Assembly (NCBI RefSeq): GCF_004010195.1
Contig: NC_057759.1
Span: 4,484,703 to 4,518,457, forward strand
Source: Chiloscyllium plagiosum
Lineage: Eukaryota
Direction: 5' to 3'
Length of the DNA stretch: 33,755 nt
Shown: piece by piece, positions 597 to 25,920 of the stretch
Layout of the letters: each line of letters opens with the position of its first letter
Numbering within the stretch: the stretch's first letter is position 1
The notes under the pieces: model-generated
The model's input: only the letters and a program-made list of their open reading frames with translations
What the model was told of the DNA's origin: nothing
The model's database searches: none
Translations under genes and position numbers: made by a program

Positions 597-1071
597 CAAT
601 GACAGAAATAAAAGGAAATACAGAAATTGTAGGAGAAACTCAGCAGGGACAGATATTATTTGCCACCTGGGGACTGACTGTTTACTGTAAAACACCTTTC
701 CATCTTTTCTTTTGATCCTTTTTTTGCTGGGGCCGTGTACTGTTCAGTAAAGAACACGGGCACACGATGGCAACTATTCATTTGGTTTACAAACCTTGAG
801 ATTCTCAACCAAGGGCGTGTACTCTGAGAATTATTATTAAAGGGTGGAAAATCAAAGGTTTTCTGTATATCTGAGGGAGGCTGTGTGCGATGGGTATGAC
901 TCAACTTGGAATTTGTAGGGTAGACCCTGGAGTCCATCGGAGGAAGACAGAACAATAGTGATGCATCGTAATTTCATTATTTTATTCCTTAGAGGGATAT
1001 ATATATATGTATATAATCTGGCTCAATCAGGAAAGATTTTATATATGATTGAGCCATTCCAACTACCTCAG

Positions 1072-1616
1072 TCTCAAGTCAGAAGTGAGATGGAATGCTC
1101 CCACTTTGCCTGATTAGTTGCAGCTCCAACAACACTTGAAAAGCTTGACATGATCGTGGGACAAAGCAGCTCCACTTGGTTGGAACAACATCCACAAACA
1201 TCCACTCCCTCGACTAGCCATGCTCAGTAGCAGCAGTGTGTACCATCTACAAGATGGACTGCAGAAATACACCAAAGATCCTCAGGCAGCACCTTCAAAA
1301 GCACAACCACTTCCATCTAGAAGGACAAGTACAGCAGATACATGGGAACACCCACCATCTACAAGTTCCCCTTCTGGCCGATCAGTGTCCTGACATGGAA
1401 ATATAACACTGTTCTTTCAGGGTCATTGGGTCAAAATCCTGGTATTCCCTCCGTCAGGGCAATGTGTGTCTATCTACAGCACATGGACTGCAGCAGTTCA
1501 AGAAAGCAACTCATCGCTACCTTCTCAAGGGGGCAACTAGGGATGAGTTGGGCAATAAATGCTGGGCCCAGCAGTGATGCCCATATGACATGAGTGAGTA
1601 ATAGTAACAAAAAAAA
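1072..1616 (+). mobile_element. 3' end of a different non-LTR retrotransposon family (CR1/L2 group), decayed
   Basis: Degenerate ORF2 C-terminus (QVRSEME..., AAPTTLEKLD..., VAAVCTIYKM..., GSKSW..., FKKATH) followed by AATAAA at 1554-1559 and an A-rich tail ending about 1616. Confidence 0.7.
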
Positions 1617-1917
1617 TTGTAAATTACCCTGGGGCCTCCACCTTCTCTATGTGAGCTTGTTCTGGGAGGGTGGGCACAAACTTTGCAGTGAATGTTGATG
1701 CAAAATACACATTCGATGTTATTGAGTCACCTGGTTTGCGAACTGCTTTGAAACGGTCGATATATATAGCTAAGAGCTTAGGTTTATATTCATGCTGGGT
1801 TGGGGCTGTGACCTTAATTGTCGCTCCATATTTAAGTTTGAGGCATTGTTTGCTGTTGGTTTAACATTCTGATCTCTAACCTTTCGGTTCCCTTTGCTTA
1901 TTGTTTCTTGACTATAG

Positions 1918-1983
1918 ATGACTCCAAAATGGATAGGGGTTTGGTGTACTCAGTTTCCACCATCTCAAAAATAAGAAACGCTG
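1918..1983 (+). CDS. Putative internal coding exon (phase 1-1, 66 nt) of an ITIM-bearing receptor cytoplasmic tail: (x)DSKMDRGLVYSVSTISKIRNA(G)
   Basis: Branch-point-like CTCTAAC (1874-1880), long pyrimidine tract, TAG acceptor ending at 1917, donor CTG|GTAAAG after 1983 (alternative in-frame ACA|GTATGT after 1995). Open frame with a Tyr motif, in unique sequence between repeats, phase-compatible with the exon at 8086. Confidence 0.6.
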
Positions 1984-3466
1984 GTAAAGGATACAGTATG
2001 TAAACTTTCATAACATTTCTGGTTCAGTGAAAGTGGGAGATTTTCTCAAGTTTACCTTAACCCTCTAAAACCCAGCCACTTTTAAACATCGCAAGTGAGA
2101 AAGGCCAATTTTGATGGTATTAGGCAAGAACTTACAAAAGCTGATTGGGCGCAGATGTTCGCAGGTAATGGGAAGGCTGGAAAATAGGAAGTCTTCAGAA
2201 ATGAGATAATGAGAATCCAGAGAAAGTATATTCCTGTCAGGGTGAAAGGAAAGACTGGTAGGTATAGGGAATGCTGGATGACTAAAGAAATTGAAGGTTT
2301 GGTTAAGAAAAGGAAGGAAGCATATATAAGTTATAGAAGGATAGATCGAGAGAATCCTTAGGAGAGTATGAAGGAAGTAGGAATATACTTGAGAGAGAAA
2401 TCAGGAGGGGAAGAAGGGGACATGAGATAGCTTTGGCAAATAGAATTAAGGAGATCCAAAGGGGTTTTACAAATACTTTAAGGACAAAAAGGGGTTACTA
2501 GTGAGAGAATAGGGCCCCTCAAAGATCAGCAAGGTGGCCTTTGGGTGGAACCGCAGGAGATGGGGGAGATACTAAACGAGTATTTTGCATCAGTATTTAC
2601 GATGGAAAAGGACATGGAAGGTCTCGAATGTACGGAAATAGATGGTGACATTTTAAAAAATGTCCATCTTAGAGAGGAGGAAGTGCTGGATGACATGAAA
2701 CGCATAAAAGTGGAGAAATCCCCAGGACCTGATCAGGTGTACCCTAGAACCCTGTGGGAAGCTCGGGAAGTGATTGCTAGGCCTCTTGCTGAGATATTTG
2801 AACATTGATAGTCACAGATGAGGTGCCGGAAGACTAGGAGGTTGGCTAAGGTAGTGCCACTGTTTAAGAAAGGTGGTAAGGACAAACCAGGGAACTATAG
2901 ACCAGTGAGTCTGACATCGGTGGTGGGCAAGTTGTTGGAAGGAATCCTGAGGAACAGGATGTACATATATTTGGAAAGGCAAGGACTAATTACAGATAGT
3001 CAACATGGCTTTGTGTGTGGGAAATCATGTCTCAGAAACATGATTGAGTTGTTTGAAGAAGTAACAAAGAGGATTGATGAGGGTAGAGCGGTAGATGTGA
3101 TAAATACAGACTTCAGTAAGGCATTCGACAAGGTTCCCCATGGGGGACTGGTTAGCAAGGTTAGATCTCGTGGAATACAGGGAGAACTAGCCATTTGGAT
3201 ACAGAACTGGTTCAAAGGTAGTAAACGGAGGGTAGTGATGGAAGGTTGGTTTTCAGACTGGAGGCCTGTGACCAGTGGAGTGCCACAAGGATCGGTGCTG
3301 GGTCCACTACTTTTTATCATTTATATAAATGATTTGGATGTGAGCAGAAGAGGTACAGTTAGTAAGTTTAACTAGGAGAAAGTGAGGACTGCAGATACTG
3401 GAAACCAGAGTTGAAAAATGTGGTGCTGGAAAAACACAGCAGGCCAGGCAGCATCCGAGGAGCAGG

Positions 3467-3506
3467 AGATTTGACGTTTCGGGCATAAGCGCTTCTTCAG
3501 AAATCT
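3467..3506 (-). ncRNA. Minimal type I hammerhead ribozyme motif (PLE family 1)
   Basis: Minus strand reads agauuu CUGAAGA A GCGC UUAU GCCC GAAACGUC aaaucu. Intact CUGANGA/GAAA core, 6-bp helix I, helix II with one mismatch, palindromic ACGU helix III. Predicted cut after GUC (3473). Confidence 0.75.
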
Positions 3507-4682
3507 TTTTGTCTAGCCGCGTGTCGAACTCATTGATCCAGAGCATAGGGGGATGAAGGCGAGGCCTCTGCTGAGGACTGATCTTTCATCCTTAGGGGGA
3601 GGTTTGGAGGGATGGTGAAAATACGGTAGGGCTGGGAGCTAGGACCTGGTGTGGGGCTGGAGTTGGTCGTGGGGGCGGAGTTGGTTGATGTGGGAGTGGC
3701 GTAGCGTGCATTGTGGTCCTTGAGCAGGTGAGTGACGTCACTGAGAGCAGAAGTGGCTGCGGCAACGGCAGCTCCGGGGGCGGAAGTGGCGTGCCGGGCA
3801 GAAATGGCGCTGGTCCCGGTAGCCATGGATCCCGCGGCGGCCGCGTATCTGTCGGCGATGGTCTTCCTAGCAATCATGGAGGCGGTTGTCTGGGCAGCGA
3901 TCGCAGAGGTTGCATGGTCGGTGGTGGCTGTTGTCTGTGCGGTGGTGGGGGAGGAAGTGACGTCACCGTTCGCCGCGGCAATGGTGGCTGCAGCAGCTGT
4001 GTGGGCAATGGCGCCTGAGCGGTTCCAGAGGTCGCAAGAAGGTTCAGGAACGGTCGAGGAATCCGGAGTGTGAGGGTGAGTACATGAAAGTTTTCGTACT
4101 TACTTTCTTTGATGTTCGATATGGCTAAGAAAAAGCGTTTGTTCAGTGTATGAATTCTTCTGAGGATGAAGAACAGCAAAGGTCCTTTGCAAGAGTGTTG
4201 TCCTGAGCTGGGGCAGGGCTGACTGCAGGAAGTGTAGGTAGCGGCGCATGGCTGCGCGCTTGGAGCGGAGGATCCGGAGGGAGGTCTGTTTCATGGAGGC
4301 TTCGGATTTGTTGCAGGTACAGGTTGTCCTGGTTGGGTCCAAATTGTGTTGGTCTGAATGTAGTCCGGAGTCCATGCGGGGTCAGTCGGTTCCATAGGCA
4401 GGTGCTGAGGAAAGAGATGTGGCTGTGATAGCGAGTCTGTTTCAGGTCGTGGCTGAAGAGCTTCAGGGCAGAGGAGATGACCTGGGGGGAGGGACTCATC
4501 TGAGATCCTTGTAGAGAGAGGGAGGAGAGCTTCTTCAAGGTAGGCATCCTTGCAAGAGGATTCGCAGTAGGTTAAGATCAACTAGGAGAAAGTGAGGACT
4601 GCAGATCCTGGAGACCAGAGTTGAAAAATGTGGTGCTGGAAAAACACAGCAGGCCAGGCAGCATCCGAGGAGCAGGAGAATC

Positions 4683-4710
4683 GACGTTTTGGGCATAAGC
4701 CCTTCTTCAG
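4683..4710 (-). ncRNA. Hammerhead motif, inactive-looking copy (G12 to A, helix I partner truncated)
   Basis: CUGAAGA A GGGC UUAU GCCC AAAACGUC. Perfect helix II, but GAAA has become AAAA at a CpG site. Confidence 0.65.
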
Positions 4711-5904
4711 TTAGTAAGTTTGCGGATAACACCAAAACTGAAGTGTAGTGGACAGCGAAGGAGGTTACCTCAGATTACAACGGGATGTTGATCAGATGTG
4801 CCAATGGGCTGAGAAGGATAAATGTGAGGTGTTGCATTTTGGAAAAACAAATCTTAGCAGGACTTATACACTTAATGGTAAGGTCCTAGGGAGTGTTGCT
4901 GAACAAAGAGACCTTGGAATGCAGGCTCATAGCTCCTTAAAAGTGGAATCACAGGTAGATAGGATAGTGAAGAAGGCATTTGGTATGCTTTGCTTTATTG
5001 GTCAGAGTATTGAGTACAGGAGCTGGGAGGTCATGTTGCGGCTGTACAGGACATTAATTCGCCCACTTTTGGAACATTGCTTGCAATTCTGGTTGGAGGA
5101 TTTGAGCTATATGGAAAGGTTGAATAGACTAGGGCTATTTTCTCTACAGTGTTGGAGGCTCTAGGGTGACCTCATAGAGGTTCATAAAATCATGAGAGGC
5201 ATGGATAGGATAAATAGATAAAGTCTTTTCCCTGGGGTGGAGGGTGAGAGGGGAAGGATTTAAAAGAGGACTAAAGGACAACTTTTTCACGCAGAGGGTG
5301 GTACGTGTATGGAATGAGCTGCCAGAGGAAATGGTGGAGGCTAGTACAATTGCTACATTTAAAAGGCATCTGGATGGGTATATGAATAGGAAGGGTTTGG
5401 AGGGATATGGGCCGGGTGCTGTCAGGTGGAGCTAGATTGGGTTAGGATATCTTCTCGGCATGGACGAGTTGGACCGAAGGGTCTGTTTCCATGCTGTACA
5501 TCTCTGTGACCCTAATGTTTCCTTTGCTTATAGCATGGAGTGATGATCTACCCAAATGTTTTGAATCTTTTTACATCAGTTGAATTTATTAATAATCAAT
5601 AGTGTTTGCAATCAATTAAATCATAGACATGTTTCATCTATGTCAACTAAATTAACAATAGGGCAATGTGAATTGGAAGAAGGAATGCTACATTGATGAT
5701 TAATTACTTTTCCTTTCATCTTGTTTTGAGGGGATGCCTACATTTAAGCCTGGGACATCATTCTATTGATTGCCCCAGTACAACAGCTTAATGTCTGAGA
5801 GTGGTCCTTTCTGGCCTTGGTCTTAGGGGCAAGGAGCCATTCGCTCTGGGTCTAGCATCATTCACATGAGGAGCATTGCCATTTCATTTCCCTGAGTGTT
5901 TCTT

Positions 5905-6917
5905 TGGTGACACAACGATAGGTGGAAGGACAGCTAGTGTTGAGGAAGCAGGGAGGCTGCAGAAGGATTTGGACAGGCTGGGAGAGTGGGCAACAAAATG
6001 GCTGATGGAATACAATGTGGGAAAGTGGGAAGAACAGAGACAGAGACAGTTTTTGAAATGGGGAAAGGGTTCAGAAATCTGAAGAACAAAAGGACTTCGG
6101 AGTCTGAGTTCAGGATTCCTTTCAGGTTGGGCAAAAGTGAGGACAGAAGATGCCAGAAACCTGATGAAGGGCTTTTGCCCGAAACATCAATTTTCCTGCT
6201 CCTTGGATGCTGCCTGACCTGCTGTGCTTTTCCAGCACCACTCTGATCTCTTATTTTCAGGTTAACAGGCAGGTTCAGTTGACAGTTAGGAAGGCAAATG
6301 GAATGTCAGCATTCATTTTGTGAGGTGTAGAATACAAGAGCAGGGATGTACTGCTGAGGCTGTATTAGGCTCTGGTCAGACCACATTTGGAACATTTGAG
6401 AGCAGTTTTGGGCCCCCTATCTAAGGAAGAATGTGCTGAACTTGGAGGAAGTTCAGAGGGGGTTTACAAGAAAAATCACAGGAATGAAGAATTTATCATA
6501 TGAGGAGAGGTTGAGGACTCCTTGAGTCTGGATTCAGTGGAGTTTAGAAGGGTGAGGGTGAATCTGATTGAAACTGGGAGAATACTGAACGGCCGGGATA
6601 GAGTGGACATGGAGAATATGTTTCCATGAGTAGGAGAGACTAGGACCCGAAGGCACAGCCTCAGAATGAAGGGAACTCCCTTTAGAACTGAGATGAGGAG
6701 GAATTTCTTCAGCCAGACAGTGGGGAATCTGTGGAACTCATTACTGCAGACAGCTGTCATTATGTCTTTAAGACAGAGATAGATAGATAGATAGATTCTT
6801 GATCAGTAGGATGATGAACCATTACAGAGAGAAGGCATGAGAATGGGGTTAACAAACATATCAGCCATAACGGAGCAGACTTGATGGGCTGAATGGCTGC
6901 TCTCTCTTATGGTCTTG
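5905..6917 (+). mobile_element. CR1-clade LINE 3' portion, older family
   Basis: DT.IGG...LQKDLDRLGEWA.KWLMEYNVGK, ALVRPHLE, RRNFFSQ.V..LWNSL motifs; decayed 3' UTR; small (GATA)n at about 6778-6795. Confidence 0.85.
6129..6254. mobile_element. Short PLE family-1 terminal-repeat insertion with internal inversion; hammerhead core on + strand at 6161-6188
   Basis: Flanked by TTTCAGGTT at 6120-6128 and 6255-6263. AAAGTGAGGAC... is followed by the opposite-orientation CTGATGA A GGGC TTTT GCCC GAAAC ATC. Confidence 0.8.
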
Positions 6918-7089
6918 GTTACTAAGTGACTAATGGCCTGTGACACATCACACAGTTTAGGCCTTCAGATTCAGAGCTTTCTGAGCATGTACTATGAGCC
7001 ACCCACTCTAAAAAGTGTTCAGGCAGCTGGACGACCAATAGAACATACGGACGAGGAGCCCTCAGGAGCCAGCTTCCCTCTTTCTTTAT

Positions 7090-7506
7090 GGCTGCGACTG
7101 ATCTCATCCCTGCCTCAATTCCAATTTCCTGCCCCCACTCCCTTTAACCCCTCACTGATTGTCAATCTGTCTGTCCCTTCCTTTAATTTATTCAGTGTCC
7201 CGACATGCCCCCCCCCCCCCACACACACAATGGGAGATGAATTCTCAGATATTCCCACCCCCTCTGCCTTGGAGAGAAGCCATTTCTCAACATCTTTTCA
7301 ATCTGCCCCACCCCCTTCTCCTGAAACAATGACCCTCTCATTCTAAATTGTCACATGTGAGGAAACATCCTCTCCGTCTCCTTTGTCAATCTCACCTCCT
7401 TTACCACCCTATTTCCCTCAGTTGGAACTCCCCTCATTCCTCTAAACTCCAGAGCATATTGGCCTTAACTGCTCAATCTCTCTTTTGAAGACAAACTCCT
7501 CATCTC
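7090..7506 (-). mobile_element. Highly decayed CR1-type LINE 3' remnant
   Basis: Pyrimidine-rich reverse complement of a CR1 ORF2 C-terminus and 3' UTR, similar to other copies in the window. Confidence 0.55.
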
Positions 7507-7589
7507 TGAACATGAAATGTACAAAATTATATTAGATGGTATCTTGGATGTAGAATACACATCTCAAGGTGACTTAGTCATAATTTCCG

Positions 7590-8037
7590 AGAGGTCTACA
7601 GCCCAGAAAAAAGACTCCATTGAGTCTGTGCCAGTCAGAAACAACCACCTCTAATCCCATTTCCCCAGCACTAGGCTCCATAGCCTTGGTATCCGGAGTG
7701 CTCATCTAAATCCTCCTTCAATGTGATGATGGTTTCTGTTTCTCCCACCCTTACAGACAGTGACTTCCAGATTCCCCACCGCCCTCTGGGTGAACAAGAT
7801 TTTCCTCACATCCCTTTGAAACCTCCTGGCCCTTATCTTCAATCTATACCCCTCACCCCACCTCTGTCAAGGCAGGGGTGGAGATTTCTTCCTGTCTACC
7901 CTATCTTCACCCCTCATCGTTTTATACATCCCTCTCTTTCAATCCACTCAGCTGTAAGGACAACTACCCCAATCTGTCCAATTTCTCTCAATCACTGAAA
8001 CTCTCATCTGGTAAATCTCCCTGTGCATCCTCTCACA
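7590..8037 (-). mobile_element. Highly decayed CR1-type LINE 3' remnant
   Basis: TTCCAGATTCCCCACCGCCCTCTGGGTGAA...TTCCTCACATC matches the reverse complement of the conserved FFTQRVV..WN segment. Confidence 0.6.
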
Positions 8038-8085
8038 ATTCATTTAGATATGTACCGTTGGATATGTCTTTTCTTTTATTTACAG

Positions 8086-8117
8086 GTCACTCTAATGGTG
8101 CAGCAGGAAGGAAACCC
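8086..8117 (+). CDS. Putative 32-nt coding exon (phase 1-0): (G)HSNGAAGRKP
   Basis: Acceptor TCTTTTCTTTTATTTACAG ending at 8085 and consensus donor GTAAGT at 8118-8123. Phases join the 1918 and 10702 exons into one open frame. Confidence 0.65.
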
Positions 8118-8192
8118 GTAAGTTATTTTGTAGTGAAAAGGAGGGCAGTTAATTTTTAACCAGCAAAGTTACGTTTTTAGCAGGCAGTTAAT

Positions 8193-8414
8193 GTAAAGTC
8201 ACCATTGTCTCATTAGAGAGAGGGAGAAGGAGGTGTAAGGGAGACAAAGAGAGAAAAAGCAACAACTGTTTTATGGTTTAACCCGAGGGTCACCACATCT
8301 AAGGCACAGGGAATGATCGTTCACAGCAACCTCAACCAGAGCAGTAATTGAACCGCATGCTGTCAATGTGACTATACATTGTAAACCAACTATAGAATCA
8401 ACTGAGCTAACCAA
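8193..8414 (-). mobile_element. tRNA-derived SINE, decayed
   Basis: Minus strand begins GGTTAGCTCAGTTG (box A-like) and contains GGTTCAATTAC (box B-like), followed by a non-tRNA body. Confidence 0.6.
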
Positions 8415-8442
8415 CCCTTTCATGGCCAGTGGCAAAAACATT

Positions 8443-8935
8443 GGGTGGCACAGTGGTTCAGTGGTTAGCATTGCTACCTCACAGCGCCAGGAACACAGGA
8501 ACAATTCCAGCCTCGGGTGATTGTGCAAACTCCCAATAGACATTCTCCCCTCCTCTCCGTGGGTTTTCTCCGGGTGCTCCGGTTTCCTCCCACAGTCAAA
8601 AATGTGCAGTTTAGGTGGATTGGCCATGCTAAGTTGCCCATAGTATGAGAGTTACGCAGGCTAGAAGGGATAGTCATGGGAAATGCAGGGTTACAGTGAT
8701 TGGAGAGGTTTTTTTTGTGGTGGGTCTGGGTTGGATGCTATTCAGTGGGTCATGATATGGACCCGATGGGCTGAAAGGCCTGCTTCCACGCTGCAGGATT
8801 CTATGAAGTGCAGGTTAGGGGAAATGGCCATGGTTAATGCAGGGTTATTGGACTAGGGCCGGGGTCTGGGTGGGATCCTTTTCACTGGCTTGGGACAGAC
8901 TGGATGGGCTGAATGGTCTCTTTGCACACTGTACA
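8443..8935 (+). mobile_element. HE1/V-SINE-type SINE, decayed, with a duplicated 3' segment at about 8807-8935
   Basis: GGTGGCACAGTGGTTCAGTGGTTAGCA head and CCGGGTGCTCCGGTTTCCTCCCACAGTC core, homologous to 33514-33755. Confidence 0.85.
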
Positions 8936-9084
8936 GATCTTGGGGACATTAATGTTTAGCTCAACGGTGTGGGGCAATTTATTCCGGTCTCAATTTTGAT
9001 GAGATTCACTTTCATGTTTCTGAAATAATGGGGAAGCAAAATCCTATGTTTTCAGCTCCCCAGGGAGCTCTGCAGATGTGAATT

Positions 9085-9540
9085 TGAAACTTGCTGTGGC
9101 AGGTGGTGGATCTGGAATTCGATTTGAAACAAAAACAGATCTGGAGTTAAGACTCTAATGATGACTGTTGTCAGGAACAAACAACCATCTGGTTCAAAAT
9201 TGAAGACTGAGGTGAGGAGGAATTTCTTCTCTGAGAGGGTTGAGAGTCTTGGAATCCTTGCCGCAGAGAGCTGTGTGTGGGGACAGGGAACAGGTTTATA
9301 GCTGGGGTAGGTAGGTTCCTGATCAGTCGGGGAATTGAGGATGACATGTTAAGTGCAGGAAAGTGAACGTGAGGAATGGTGCATCAGCCACAACACTAAT
9401 GGCTGAGCAGGCTCGAGGGACCAAATGGCCGCCTCCTGTTCCTGTCTGTGATGGTCCTTCAGGGAATGAAATCTGACCTCCTTACCCACTCTGCTCTGCA
9501 TGTGAATCCTAATCCTTTGCAAACTCTTCACTGCCTTCTG
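9085..9540 (+). mobile_element. Deu-domain-type SINE remnant interrupted by a CR1 3'-end fragment (about 9200-9447)
   Basis: CCATCTGGTTCA (9185-9196) resumes as GTCCTTCAGGGAATGAAATCTG after a LINE piece (GAGGAGGAATTTCTTCTCTGAGAGGGT...). Family identity is from recalled consensus. Confidence 0.55.
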
Positions 9541-9780
9541 GCTGAGCAAGTCGATTGGTTCAAGGACATTTCGGAATTGCATCCACTTCCGACTTTGGCA
9601 GAGATGGCCACATCCTATTCAGAGTACAGAGAAATAACATTTGTCAGGGTCAATTTTAGGCTTGCTCCAATCACATGCTTTGCCAAGAGAAGTTGGTCTG
9701 TATAATGACCCCAGGTATTCACAGCTCCTCCTGTACACTCTGATTATCTTTCAGGCAAAGTTTGTTATTCTCATCCATTT

Positions 9781-10657
9781 TCATAGAGTCACACAGCATG
9801 GAAATAGTCCCTTTGGCCCAACTCGCCCATGCTGACCAAGTTTCCCAAACTCAACTAGTCCCATTTATCTGCATTTGGCCCATATCTCTCTAAACTTTTC
9901 TTATCCATGTACCTTTCCAAATGTCTTTGAAATATCTGTCTCTCCCACTTCCCCTGGCAGCAGCTCATACCGTATACGCACTGCCCTCTGTGTGAAAAAT
10001 TTGCCTCTCACGTCTTTCCCCTCTAACCTTAAACCTATGCCCACTAGTTTTGGATACCCCTACCTTGGGAAAAGACCATACCTATTTACCTTATCTATGC
10101 CCCTTGTGATTTTATAACCTCCATAAGGTCACCTCTCAGACTCTGATGCTCCAGGAGAGAAAAGCTCCCAGCTCATGCAGCTTCTCCTCATAATTCAAAC
10201 CCTGCAATGTTGGTAACATCTTTGTCAATCTTTTCCGTATCTTTATTAGCTGAAGAAATTTCTACAGCAGGCCGACCAGAATTGCACATAGTATTCCAAA
10301 AGTGGCCTCACCAACATCCTGTACAGCTGTAACGTGATGCCCCAACTCCTGTCGTCAGTGCTCTGACCAATGAAAGTGATCATGCCAAACACCACCTTCT
10401 GCACCATGTCTAGCTGCAATGCCATATTCAAGGAACAATCGAACTGCACCCCAAGGCCTCTCTGTTCGGAAACACTCCCCAGACTTGTACTATGAACAGT
10501 GTACATCCTGCCCTGGTTTGTCTTATCAAAATGCAATACGTCGCATTTATCTAAATTAAATGTCACCTGCCATTCCTTGACCCACTGGCCTAGTTGATAA
10601 AATGTCCATTATGTTCTTAGATAAGCTTCTTCTTTGTCCAAAATGCTACCAATTTTA
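9781..10657 (-). mobile_element. CR1-clade LINE 3' portion
   Basis: ORF 10246..10566: FNLDKCDVLHF...LYRMLVRPLLEYYVQFWS; 3' UTR at the left end. Confidence 0.9.
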
Positions 10658-10701
10658 GTCCTGCTCCTATCTACTACATTTCTGTGTTGACCTGTTTTCA
10701 G

Positions 10702-10833
10702 GCTGACCAAGCAGAACAGCGACCACCCTGCATTACTTACGCCAGCCTGCGGAACACAGATACAGGAGGGTATGAGGAACCAGGTCAAGATGAAGAGGGA
10801 AAAATTTATGTCAACTTTGTACGGACAATATGA
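10702..10833 (+). CDS. Putative terminal coding exon: ADQAEQRPPCITYASLRNTDTGGYEEPGQDEEGKIYVNFVRTI* (ITIM plus two further Tyr motifs)
   Basis: Acceptor TTGACCTGTTTTCAG ending at 10701; 43 sense codons then TGA at 10831-10833. ITYASL (10732-10749) fits the ITIM consensus [ILVS]xYxx[LV]; YEEP and acidic-preceded YVNF also present. Unique, non-repeat sequence. Confidence 0.72.
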   Translation, partial: ADQAEQRPPCITYASLRNTDTGGYEEPGQDEEGKIYVNFVRTI

Positions 10834-11359
10834 GACTGCACAGAAGAAAGCCTGTGAAGCTTCTCAAGTTTTTCAACAGCAAATCTACCTTCCAACAAAT
10901 AGGGAGGAAATGGAAGAGAAGGCATAGCAAAGTCATGTTTCTGCAACTCGGCTAGGCTTTGTCACAATTCACTCAACAAGATATCAGTTCGAAAGATGGA
11001 CTTGTCTTGAGAACCCATCTGAATAATGGTCTCTACCCGAGCTCTCGGGGGGTCAATTTATACCGCTAACACGATCTAACTGTTGATGGCAGAGATTTGA
11101 GATGTTATGGTGACCTTTCCTAACTTGAGCATCCATTTGATCTCCTGGCGAATGGGTCAAGGCAGATGTACTCTGTATCTTTTATTTAAATTGTGGTGAG
11201 CTGGAAATAATTCAAGGCAGGGTCGTTCACCAGCTCTATCTTCATTGCCCTCCAACTTCATCACTGTTAATACACATCCAGCTCTCCTTTCATACCTCAT
11301 ATGGAATCTACCTCCACCACGATCCCAGGCTGCACAATCCAAATCCTAACAACTCTGAG

Positions 11360-12030
11360 TAAAGACATTTCTCTCCATGTCACTCCTAGCTCTCTTGCTG
11401 ACAGTGTTGAAATTGTGACCCCTAGTTACTGACATACCAAGTAATGGTAAAAAAAATTCTTGTTTCCCCTGTCAAAATTCTTCATAACCCCTCTCTTAAT
11501 CTTCTCTGCTCCAAGGAGAAGGAGCCTAATCATTCCTTGTAAGTAAAATCCTTCATTCCTGCTATCATTCTAGTCAATCTCCTGTGAACCTTCTCCAGAG
11601 CTTGAAGATCCTTCCTTAAATAGAACTGAAATGTGGTCTGACCAATGATTTGTAGAGGTATAGCATCACTTCCTCAGTTTTATACTCAATGCCTCTATTT
11701 ATACACCTTCTTCACAAAGGTTTCAGCTTGCCTGACCACCTTCAGAGAATGATACACATGAACCCCGAGGTACCTCTGTTCCAATGCTCCCCTCAATGAT
11801 GTACAATTGACAATGTGTTGCTTTGTGTTTCTGTTAGCAAAATGCATTTCATTACATTTCTCTGCATTGGAATTCATCTGCCAAGTTTCTGCCCATTTGG
11901 CCAACTTGTCATCTACCTGTGAAGTCACTCAGCATCATCCTCACAATTCACTCTTCTCCCTGGGTTAGTATCAACTGCGAATTTAGAGATTATATCCTCA
12001 ACACCCAACTCCTAATCATTTATATAACAA
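11360..12030 (-). mobile_element. Decayed CR1-type LINE fragment
   Basis: ORF 11695..11928: KLAKWAETWQMNSNAEKCNEMHF...RYLGVHV. Confidence 0.75.
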
Positions 12031-12465
12031 TGTAGTTTTCAACGTGTACTTGTCAGTTTCTTTTATGTGCATGTAAATATTAATCTCTACCTATCCGTTA
12101 CCGCTATGTGAACCAGTCTGTTCCTGCTCTGTGAATTGAGACAGTCAATATTGGCCTGTATTTGCCCGTTCTGCCCATTTGGCCAACTTGTCATCTACCT
12201 GTGAAGTCACTCAGCATCATCCTCACAATTCACTCTTCTCCCTGGGTTAGTATCAACTGCGAATTTAGAGATTATATCCTCAACACCCAACTCCTAATCA
12301 TTTATATAACAATGCAGTTTTCAGTGTGTACTTGTCAGTTTCTTTTATGTGCATATAACTATTAATCTCTACCTATCCGTTACCGCTATGTGAATGTATT
12401 TACCAGTCTGCTCCTGCTCTGTGAATTGAGACCGTCAATATTGGCCTGTGTGTCTTTGCCCATTT
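11887..12465. repeat. Tandem duplication, unit about 282 bp (11887-12168 and 12169 to about 12461)
   Basis: Near-identical copies beginning TTCTGCCCATTTGGCCAACTTG, with a few substitutions and small indels. Confidence 0.95.
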
Positions 12466-13000
12466 CCCCTATGTGAATGTGTGAGTGTATTTACTGGTAT
12501 GTCCCTGCTGTGTTTTGAGACTGTCGATATTAAACTGTACCTGTCATTTTCTCCTATGTCAAAATGTGAACGCAGTTACCAATCTTTGCCTCTCAATCTC
12601 TGCCTTGTCAATATGTGAATTTACTCATCGATTTCTACTGTCAGTTCCTGTTTGGTCAATGTGAACATTGCAGGTACCAATATGTATCTGTGAGATTCTG
12701 CTCTGTGAATATGAGAGTGTCGTTATCACACTGTACTTGTCAGTTTATGCTGTGAAACTGGGCGTGTTGTTTTCATTCTGTTCCTGTCAGTTTTAGCTTT
12801 GTGAATGAGTGTAGTTATTAATCTGGCTCTGACAGATACTGAAATGCTAATGTGTGACTTAGAAAATGGAGATTAATAGTCACACATTTGCATCGCAGAA
12901 ACTGTGTCGTCATCATTTGTTTATCTGTTTCTGCAACATGAATGTGTGTGTAGTTATCAGCCTGTACTTATCCATTTCTACTCTTTTGTATCTAAGTGGA
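12030..13000. repeat. Degenerate minisatellite-like array with recurring core CTGTAC(C/T)TGTCAGTTT and TGTGAATGT
   Basis: The core recurs at about 12045, 12326, 12535, 12731, 12780 and 12962. Confidence 0.55.
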
Positions 13001-14154
13001 AGCCAGTAATATTCTGTGTCTGTGTGATAGTTGTTATGAAGGTGTTGAGACTGGGTCTTAATCTTTTCTGCATTTTGTGATTTCTGAGTTGACTGTCAGT
13101 CTGTGGGGGTGGGTGGGTGAGAGAGGAGAAAGGGCGATGGCAGAAGGGAAACTGCTTTATTCAGAGAACCATTCTGAATTATGGTCACACATTTCCTGTT
13201 TGGGGTAGAGAGTCTAGGATCTGTGGTATCACAGACATTTAGTTTGAATTTGTACTCAGACTTGTTGGCATTTTTTTGTGAAAGATTTATTCTGCATGTC
13301 AGTCCATTTTTGTATGATTTTTTAATACCAATATGCAATACAGCAGCATGTCATCCCTTTTCTCACCAAAATCAGAATCACTGATATGGTACAGCTCAGA
13401 AGCAGATCATTCAGCTCATTGTATCTGGACTAGGACATTCTTTTATGTATCAATTCTGCAGTAATTGTTGGGAATGTGAACTTCATCCACTCATTGCCAG
13501 TGTCTATATGGAAAGGACAATTTGACATCAGTTATGTAAGCATCTGACTTTTAATAACTGTAGTCCTTGGTTGGTCAGATCACATTTTTGTGTTCAGTTC
13601 TGGGCACATTATTTCAAGAAAGATCCTCAAGCTCTGGAGAGGGTTCATTGGAGATTTACTAGATCTCAATCACCTATGTTCAGTTGTGGTTTTGTCTGAG
13701 TGTAGCACAAACTCTGTAAATAAACTCTTTTCAATGATGTCTAATTGTATTGTATTTCAGTCTGTTTATTTTTACATTGTGTGCGCTTGCATGTATAGTA
13801 GACTTTATCAGGCGCTGCTGGGCACTTTATATCCTCAGCTGTGATAAGTGATGTCGCAGATATGGGCGGAGAAATGGCAGATTGAATTTAATCTGACACA
13901 GTGTAAGATGCTGGACTTTGGGAGATCAAATGTTAAGGAAAAGTATACAGTTAGTGGCTGGACAATGAACATCTTTGACATACAGAAGGATCTTGGGGTT
14001 CAAGTCTATAGCTCCCTGAACGTGGCCACACAAGTAGATAGGGTGGTATCTCGAGGACGACATTTGGCATGCTTGCCTTATTGGTCGGAGAATTGAGTCA
14101 GGATGTCATTTGCAGCTTTATAAGACTTTGGTTAGGCCGTACTTAGAGTATTGT

Positions 14155-22979: not shown

Positions 22980-23624
<645 letters not shown>

Positions 23625-23656: not shown

Positions 23657-23696
23657 GGCTCTTTTCAGAGCCACCCAAACCCTCGGATAGAGAGCG
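23657..23696 (+). terminator. Histone 3' stem-loop and downstream element (H4)
   Basis: CCAAA GGCTCTTTTCAGAGCC ACCCA with the stem-loop at 23657-23672; purine-rich TAGAGAGCG at about 23688-23696. Confidence 0.95.

Positions 23697-25278: not shown

Positions 25279-25920
<642 letters not shown>

Follow-up and report, generated by a model that had tools for sequence, protein, structure and literature searches.

The question raised by this locus is whether three short exons in the window, by which we mean the whole 33,755-nucleotide stretch analysed here from the shark Chiloscyllium plagiosum (G000:C50:4484703-4518457, with C50 denoting contig NC_057759.1; positions without a prefix are in window numbering), form the cytoplasmic tail of a working immune receptor. 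The original prediction had joined them into the tail of a hidden FCRL-like gene bearing an immunoreceptor tyrosine-based inhibitory motif (ITIM). Their match to an intact gene on the same contig identifies them as cytoplasmic exons of an ITIM-bearing immunoglobulin (Ig)-superfamily receptor of a cartilaginous fish, as had been proposed. It is highly probable that they are the 3' end of a segmental duplicate of a gene for a likely FCRL-like inhibitory receptor with five Ig domains; this duplicate is 5'-truncated and frameshifted and is most likely a pseudogene.

Tail exons, the intact paralogue and the state of the window copy

Within the about 870 kb of C50 sequence that we examined, the intact gene is located at G000:C50:2502959-2531147 on the minus strand, about 2 Mb from the window copy. 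It consists of two leader exons (at C50:2531147 and about 2529676, with the signal peptide split over both), five Ig exons, a transmembrane exon and six tail exons, and all of the 12 exons tested were open and free of lesions. In RefSeq, the gene is represented by the C. plagiosum models XP_043539736-743 (P0001, P0008), named 'platelet endothelial cell adhesion molecule-like' (PECAM-like), while relatives of these models in Hemiscyllium, Stegostoma, Chiloscyllium punctatum and Mustelus are named Fc receptor-like protein 2-6. With RefSeq models present in at least nine shark species, the family can hardly be called hidden. The exons of the window copy and its 3' flank are as follows:

C50:4471834-4472104, plus strand: Ig4 exon, broken
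C50:4473612-4473889, plus strand: Ig5 exon, broken
C50:4474837-4474959, plus strand: transmembrane exon, open, with AG/GT splice sites
724..769, plus strand: what is left of cytoplasmic exon 3 of 6, lacking the acceptor AG and 11 nt of the 57-nt intact exon
1918..1983, plus strand: cytoplasmic exon 4 of 6, 66 nt, phase 1-1, open, AG/GT, donor GTAAAG
8086..8117, plus strand: cytoplasmic exon 5 of 6, 32-nt spacer, phase 1-0, open, donor GTAAGT
10702..10833, plus strand: last exon (6 of 6), 132 nt including the stop, phase 0-stop, ITIM ITYASL retained
10834..13845, plus strand: 3' flank, of which blocks (73-85%) still align to the corresponding flank of the intact gene

The lengths (66, 32 and 132 nt), phases and boundaries of the three window exons are those of the last three exons of the intact gene, and it is this homology to a RefSeq-annotated gene that was decisive for judging them real. 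Each exon is preceded by a pyrimidine tract and AG, the three exons joined by script give an open frame to the predicted stop, and moving the middle exon (8086-8117) by a single base results in a different peptide. The coordinates, the open join and the homology thus all confirm the proposal of three exons with splice signals and matching phases. Two further parts of the proposal did not hold. The exons had been described as unique sequence, but the last exon has 40 matches in the genome, 39 of which are other copies with 70-88% identity and 30 of which are located on C50 between 0.15 and 6.5 Mb, and exon 1918-1983 has at least 40 matches (the best 40 of 48 candidates scored). Also, the tail was thought to comprise three exons, whereas the intact gene has six, of which a fourth is present in damaged form in the window at 724-769; this remnant has GC at the donor site, which is also found in other copies.

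The tyrosine motifs of the tail have had different fates. The motif LVYSVS in the first window exon is present as proposed and is a full ITIM in the relatives, with V or I at position +3 in six of six annotated relatives from four genera, but the window copy has S at this position and has lost the hydrophobic residue. The terminal YxN is common to the relatives, with F at position +3 in the window copy versus L or V in the relatives. The labels Grb2-type for YxN and Nck-type for Y(D/E)xP are those of the original prediction. The tyrosine of the supposed Nck site was found in none of the six annotated relatives and in none of 14 paralogous last exons, which indicates a private substitution of the window copy, and the suggested Nck-type motif is not supported. 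The second ITIM, ITYASL, is kept in the window copy and agrees with the consensus as given in PMC10003336. Among the 460 stop-free stretches of at least 40 amino acids in the six frames of the window, 22 contain the ITIM consensus in their last 45 residues, and a single one, exon 10702-10833, combines an ITIM with a terminal YxN.

Inspection of the upstream DNA, as advised in the original prediction, revealed Ig and transmembrane exons on the plus strand 5' of the window, and two small tail exons (1 and 2) are also located there on the same strand. The window copy thereby extends from 13 kb upstream of the window to position 10833 in the order Ig4, Ig5, transmembrane exon and six tail exons, with introns kept. 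From Ig4 to the stop, it agrees with the intact gene in the order, length and phase of its exons (83% identity of exon DNA), and it also has the set of tail motifs in common with it. Unlike the intact gene, and at odds with the idea of a working receptor gene, it is without the leader and Ig1-3, Ig4 and Ig5 are frameshifted and two tail exons are damaged. Lesions, which were scored by exon-by-exon alignment to the intact gene, affect four of the nine exons (Ig4, Ig5 and tail exons 2 and 3). Three deletions have removed 14 nt from Ig4, which also has an in-frame stop in place of the tyrosine preceding the second cysteine, Ig5 is 25 nt shorter, and tail exon 2 has AA at the acceptor site and a 2-nt deletion. 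No alignment was obtained in the window copy for Ig1-3 (scores of 32-34 versus 156-505 for the exons present), nor was there a match to the leader or Ig1-3 in the 110 kb upstream of the window (C50:4374703-4484702, including 11,373 N). The first position with homology to the intact gene is 4471661, which is in gap-free DNA inside the Ig3-Ig4 intron and 160 bases before Ig4, and a second damaged copy is located directly upstream, in tandem with the window copy, which argues for truncation at a defined breakpoint. With its front half lost and frameshifts upstream, the window copy is most likely a dead duplicate.

Alternatively, the receptor gene might be intact, with the lesions and missing exons introduced by faulty, gapped assembly of this highly duplicated cluster. 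There are N gaps in each of the stretches examined, and near-identical paralogues are found on unplaced contigs. However, the lesions are deletions of several bases each in sequence without gaps, separate copies (L062-L064) share the Ig4 stop and similar deletions, and the same assembly contains the intact gene with no lesion in any tested exon. We consider assembly errors an extremely improbable explanation.

Two apparent Ig fragments near the locus were rejected: a weak Ig-like motif at 1655-1861 belongs to an intron and is common to the copies, and a seemingly inverted Ig fragment upstream is merely the opposite strand of an intron. In the 3' flank, there are candidate polyadenylation signals at 12529 and 13719 and a tandem duplication of 282 bases with 94% identity (11887-12449).

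Duplication, divergence and decay

Between the intact gene and the window copy, the ratio of nonsynonymous to synonymous substitution rates (dN/dS) across 343 codons is 0.79 (bootstrap interval 0.55-1.16). For the three window exons the ratio is 0.64 (0.32-1.44), and open exons (0.72) show no difference from broken exons (0.84). Nor is there an excess of exon conservation, since the identity to the intact gene is 83.3% for exons as compared to 81.9% for intron flanks. This is the pattern that neutral drift on one branch would give, with intervals that would also fit weak constraint.

We compared the window copy to the other copies of the duplicated unit. Of the 39 other last exons, 14 were examined from the top of the match list, and four of these are open with an AG acceptor. 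None of 28 full-length Ig4 copies (30 best Ig4 loci) is open with AG/GT, as compared to four of 19 full-length Ig5 copies (30 best transmembrane loci), one of which is the intact gene, and 14 of the 30 best transmembrane exons; the transmembrane exon of the intact gene itself fails the AG/GT test because it uses a shifted acceptor. One open paralogue of the second Ig exon (Ig5), which belongs to the intact gene, is 100% identical to a C. plagiosum RefSeq PECAM-like model and 73-97% identical to models from Hemiscyllium, Stegostoma and C. punctatum, several of which are named Fc receptor-like. In the examined stretches, 12 of the 14 other copies have an outright broken exon, three near-full-length copies among them, and the remaining two are fragments. 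The open rates of tail exons 4, 5 and 6 in these stretches, with the window copy included, are 5/10, 2/3 and 2/7, from which about one copy in ten is expected to retain all three by chance. The three window exons are presumably still open because they are short.

The window copy shows the features of an unprocessed pseudogene in that introns are kept, the exons are collinear with those of an intact paralogue and there are disabling lesions. We suggest that this copy and about 40 others would have arisen by repeated block duplication in a cluster that is interleaved with histone and C2H2 zinc-finger genes on C50, followed by neutral drift.

Several observations weigh against the interpretation as a pseudogene. 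The transmembrane exon, tail exon 1 and the three window exons all retain an open frame and AG/GT sites, and an in-frame join from the transmembrane exon through to the stop can be made. The dN/dS intervals are wide and take in moderate purifying selection, and the pairwise ratios mix both lineages. The assembly is gapped, with 2,650 N immediately before the window. A search of protein records of 77-2000 amino acids with the last exon as query yielded no record for the window copy (three candidates), but this search was weak and also missed the last exon of the intact gene (58% identical). Finally, the reads of four RNA runs mapped to window positions 1000-8500 were dominated by intron repeats and neither showed nor excluded splicing. 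In this repeat-dominated mapping, the 1983/8086 junction was not among the 15 of 573 joints listed, and the bin with exon 1918-1983 had zero depth in run X1 and traces in run X13, while run X14 gave no mapped reads; no RNA runs were listed for window positions 10702-11200.

The locus itself is best regarded as an ordinary by-product of gene birth and death, and we place the weight on the cluster and on a conserved element described below. A comparable system is the XFL family of Xenopus as described in PMC2413239: both are large clustered FcR-like families with lineage-specific expansion, birth-and-death turnover, fragments and pseudogenes. The shark subfamily differs from the Xenopus family in that only one of 15 examined copies is intact and in that there is no activating member with a charged transmembrane segment among 30 transmembrane exons.

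Family identity of the intact gene: FCRL versus PECAM1

Whether the intact gene is homologous to the FCRL genes is a separate question. Its best match in PDB is FCRL5, collinear over five domains (E 2e-49), followed by FCRL4 and FcgammaRI. Among the single domains, Ig2 matches FcgammaRI D2, Ig3 matches FCRL5, FCRLA and FcgammaRI D3, and both Ig4 and Ig5 match FCRL5, while Ig1 alone gives weak ROBO and KIR matches and no Fc receptor. The four best Atlas clusters are named FCRL, with PECAM1 close behind (0.98 versus 0.97). We looked up 20 of 150 listed representatives, picked for length and coverage, of which 10 are models from eight shark species with FCRL or PECAM-like names, nine are tetrapod clusters named FCRL and one has an uninformative name. 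A profile built from 12 shark tails scored eight of eight tetrapod FCRL tails above all 100 shuffles of each, whereas the medaka PECAM1 tail did not score above its shuffles. Tails from alligator, kiwi and turtle contain four tyrosine motifs in the same order as in the shark. In a tree of 38 domains, from which Ig1 and several other domains were omitted and in which a single PECAM1 was included, the shark Ig5 joins the membrane-proximal FCRL domains of tetrapods (97/95); Ig4 is grouped with a PECAM1 domain (82/85), Ig2 with a PECAM1 domain on a long branch (86/97), and the majority of forks are left open.

Tetrapod FCRLs (human FCRL5 and FCRL4, and alligator, kiwi, turtle, frog and tenrec models named FCRL2-5) share with the intact gene C2-type Ig domains in FcR-like order, a split leader, an uncharged transmembrane segment, several phase-1 tail exons and tyrosine motifs in equal order that end in YxN or a YEN-like motif. 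The intact gene differs from them in that Ig1 alone is not recognisably FcR D1 and in the length of the second leader exon (30 nt as compared to 21 nt), and the sequence identity is about 27-29% only. A split signal peptide is given as a feature of FcR and FCRL genes in PMC7940838 and PMC2413239, the former of which presents the 21-nt second leader exon as a mammalian hallmark, while according to the latter only a fraction of the Xenopus genes fit this rule. The 30-nt exon speaks against classing the shark gene as an orthologue of a mammalian FCRL gene, but leaves the homology unaffected.

The intact gene could alternatively be an offshoot of PECAM1, or belong to an independent family of shark Ig receptors, and not be a homologue of FCRL. 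PECAM1 (CD31; medaka P0028) likewise has a C2-type Ig ectodomain and an ITIM tail, its tail is encoded by several small exons, and the medaka protein aligns with 26% identity over 424 residues. The PECAM-like name, the pairing of Ig4 and Ig2 with PECAM1 domains in the tree, the lack of an Fc receptor match for Ig1 and the length of the second leader exon speak for this alternative, as does the fact that synteny with the tetrapod FCRL locus could not be shown: of its marker genes UFC1, nicastrin and SDHC, the first two are on unplaced contigs and SDHC was not found in the genome. The five-domain alignment to FCRL5 and the matches of Ig2-Ig5, the placement of Ig5 and the preference of the tail profile for tetrapod FCRLs all speak against it, and medaka PECAM1 reaches 79 bits as compared to 133-179 bits for ten tetrapod proteins that were looked up. 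In addition, the best match to medaka PECAM1 in a strict first-pass search of the genome is located on another contig (L191, C24:48070323-48070661, one exon, E 5e-8) and is a candidate for the true PECAM1. PECAM1 has six Ig domains; with five Ig exons and a better PECAM1 match on C24, the intact gene was rejected as a PECAM1 orthologue. We regard a PECAM1 offshoot or an independent family as unlikely.

The alignments to FCRL5, FCRL4 and FcgammaRI together with tail motifs that recur in tetrapod FCRLs support the FCRL-like assignment made in the original prediction. On these sequence comparisons, the family is probably homologous to FCRL, with no claim of orthology to any mammalian FCRL gene. 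By motif logic, the tail tyrosines of the intact receptor would become phosphorylated once its Ig domains bind a ligand, and the two ITIMs may then recruit SH2-domain phosphatases that would damp the activation of B cells or other leukocytes.

The family from which this probable pseudogene derives is annotated but unstudied. No FcRL homologue was found in sharks by Akula et al. 2014 (PMC4016189), and the lack is stated again in a review of June 2026 (PMC13337447). A single-cell study (PMC11372145) lists fcgr1a-like, fcrl3, fcrl5 and pecam1 as expressed in bamboo shark B cells, without analysis of these genes, and the terms fcrl, pecam and fcgr1 were not found in the text of four of its supplement files. 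No paper describing the C50 cluster was found in the literature searched, which mostly excluded subscription papers. Since tetrapod FCRLs have the tail motifs in the same order, inhibitory FCRL signalling would be as old as the jawed vertebrates, and the cluster offers candidate receptors for shark IgM, IgW or IgNAR.

A CpG-rich element and the surroundings of the cluster

A promoter-like element precedes the window copy:

L061:779-1188 = C50:4471090-4471499: CpG-rich promoter-like element, 330-740 bases upstream of the dead Ig4 and 13 kb upstream of the window

The element has a CpG observed/expected ratio of 0.76-0.79 and back-to-back motifs that we take to resemble YY1 sites, as in bidirectional promoters. 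Among 41 listed matches to the element, 18 are full-length with 97-100% identity, almost all of them located on C50 or on unplaced contigs, while the adjoining exon sequence is mostly 80-97% identical between copies; more distant matches (82-88%) are located on C4, C32233, C70290 and C70975. The element is positioned at the 5' breakpoint of the truncated copies, is present at 22 of the 30 Ig4 loci and is absent from the intact gene. A scan of the element with Rfam gave nothing at gathering score (three chance-level matches), and no tRNA genes were found in the examined regions of C50. At five loci its truncated ends coincide with N gaps, so part of the pattern may be an assembly effect; promoter selection, gene conversion and assembly collapse are candidate causes of the identity.

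Transcription from this element with skipping of the broken exons might produce a non-coding RNA or a short membrane adaptor, which would have its Met in the transmembrane exon and one ITIM and a YxN in its tail. The near-identity of the element across copies whose neighbouring exons diverge fits this proposal, and the frame from the transmembrane exon to the stop is open over 156 codons with a shifted acceptor of tail exon 2, or over 116 codons with tail exons 1-3 skipped; the in-frame join leaves room for such an adaptor. However, the dN/dS of open and broken exons gives no sign of selection, the first ITIM has decayed, the copy at C50:6190898 has a stop in the transmembrane exon despite a 99% identical element, run X1 had zero depth over the bin with exon 1918-1983, and the gaps at the ends of the element perhaps account for part of the pattern. 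We consider an adaptor or RNA quite improbable. It is very improbable that the truncated copies were amplified behind a captured CpG-island promoter and that the window copy is transcribed into an ITIM adaptor without ectodomain or into a regulatory RNA, which would imply a family of recycled Fc-receptor-like tails in sharks.

Decay of a truncated duplicate remains our preferred reading of the window copy, and the 7-Mb cluster around it contains at least three types of FcR/FCRL-like genes, including the following:

C50:4892353-4915007, 3840700-3867725, 7064158-7082230 and 4139225-4143578, minus strand: second FcR-like gene type, with a related tail
C50:5428270-5464363 (L057-L060), minus strand, and C50:3369587-3387776, plus strand: third gene type, with further Ig exons and its own transmembrane exon

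The second type is more distant (30-50% identical to the intact gene) and probably includes two RefSeq clusters that carry the name PECAM-like. The first Ig exon of the third type matches FcgammaRIII D1 (E 1e-16) and has 12 exon matches, all on C50. This FcgammaRIII-D1-like exon (C50:3369587, 5438337) was considered as an ectodomain for the window tail and rejected, as it belongs to a gene type with a transmembrane exon of its own.

Histone and zinc-finger genes were identified in the window and elsewhere in the cluster:

23325-23624 of the window, plus strand: histone H4 copy, frameshift in the first half, intact 3' stem-loop at 23657
25279-25668 of the window, minus strand: histone H2A gene, open, followed by a 3' stem-loop
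26838-27218 of the window, minus strand: histone H2B gene, open, followed by a 3' stem-loop
C50:6158553-6159803 (L021-L022), plus strand: long open C2H2 zinc-finger frame within the receptor cluster

The sequence at 23325-23624 is presumably a frameshifted H4, as judged by comparison with H4. Further decayed zinc-finger frames are located near C50:6158553-6159803. Pieces of the duplicated unit were also recovered outside C50 (C43:11344285, C33:41377001, C11:84775152, C9:79654555 and C24:7432592-7446621), and some of the pieces on other large contigs are 91-95% identical to exon 1918-1983 and its flanks.

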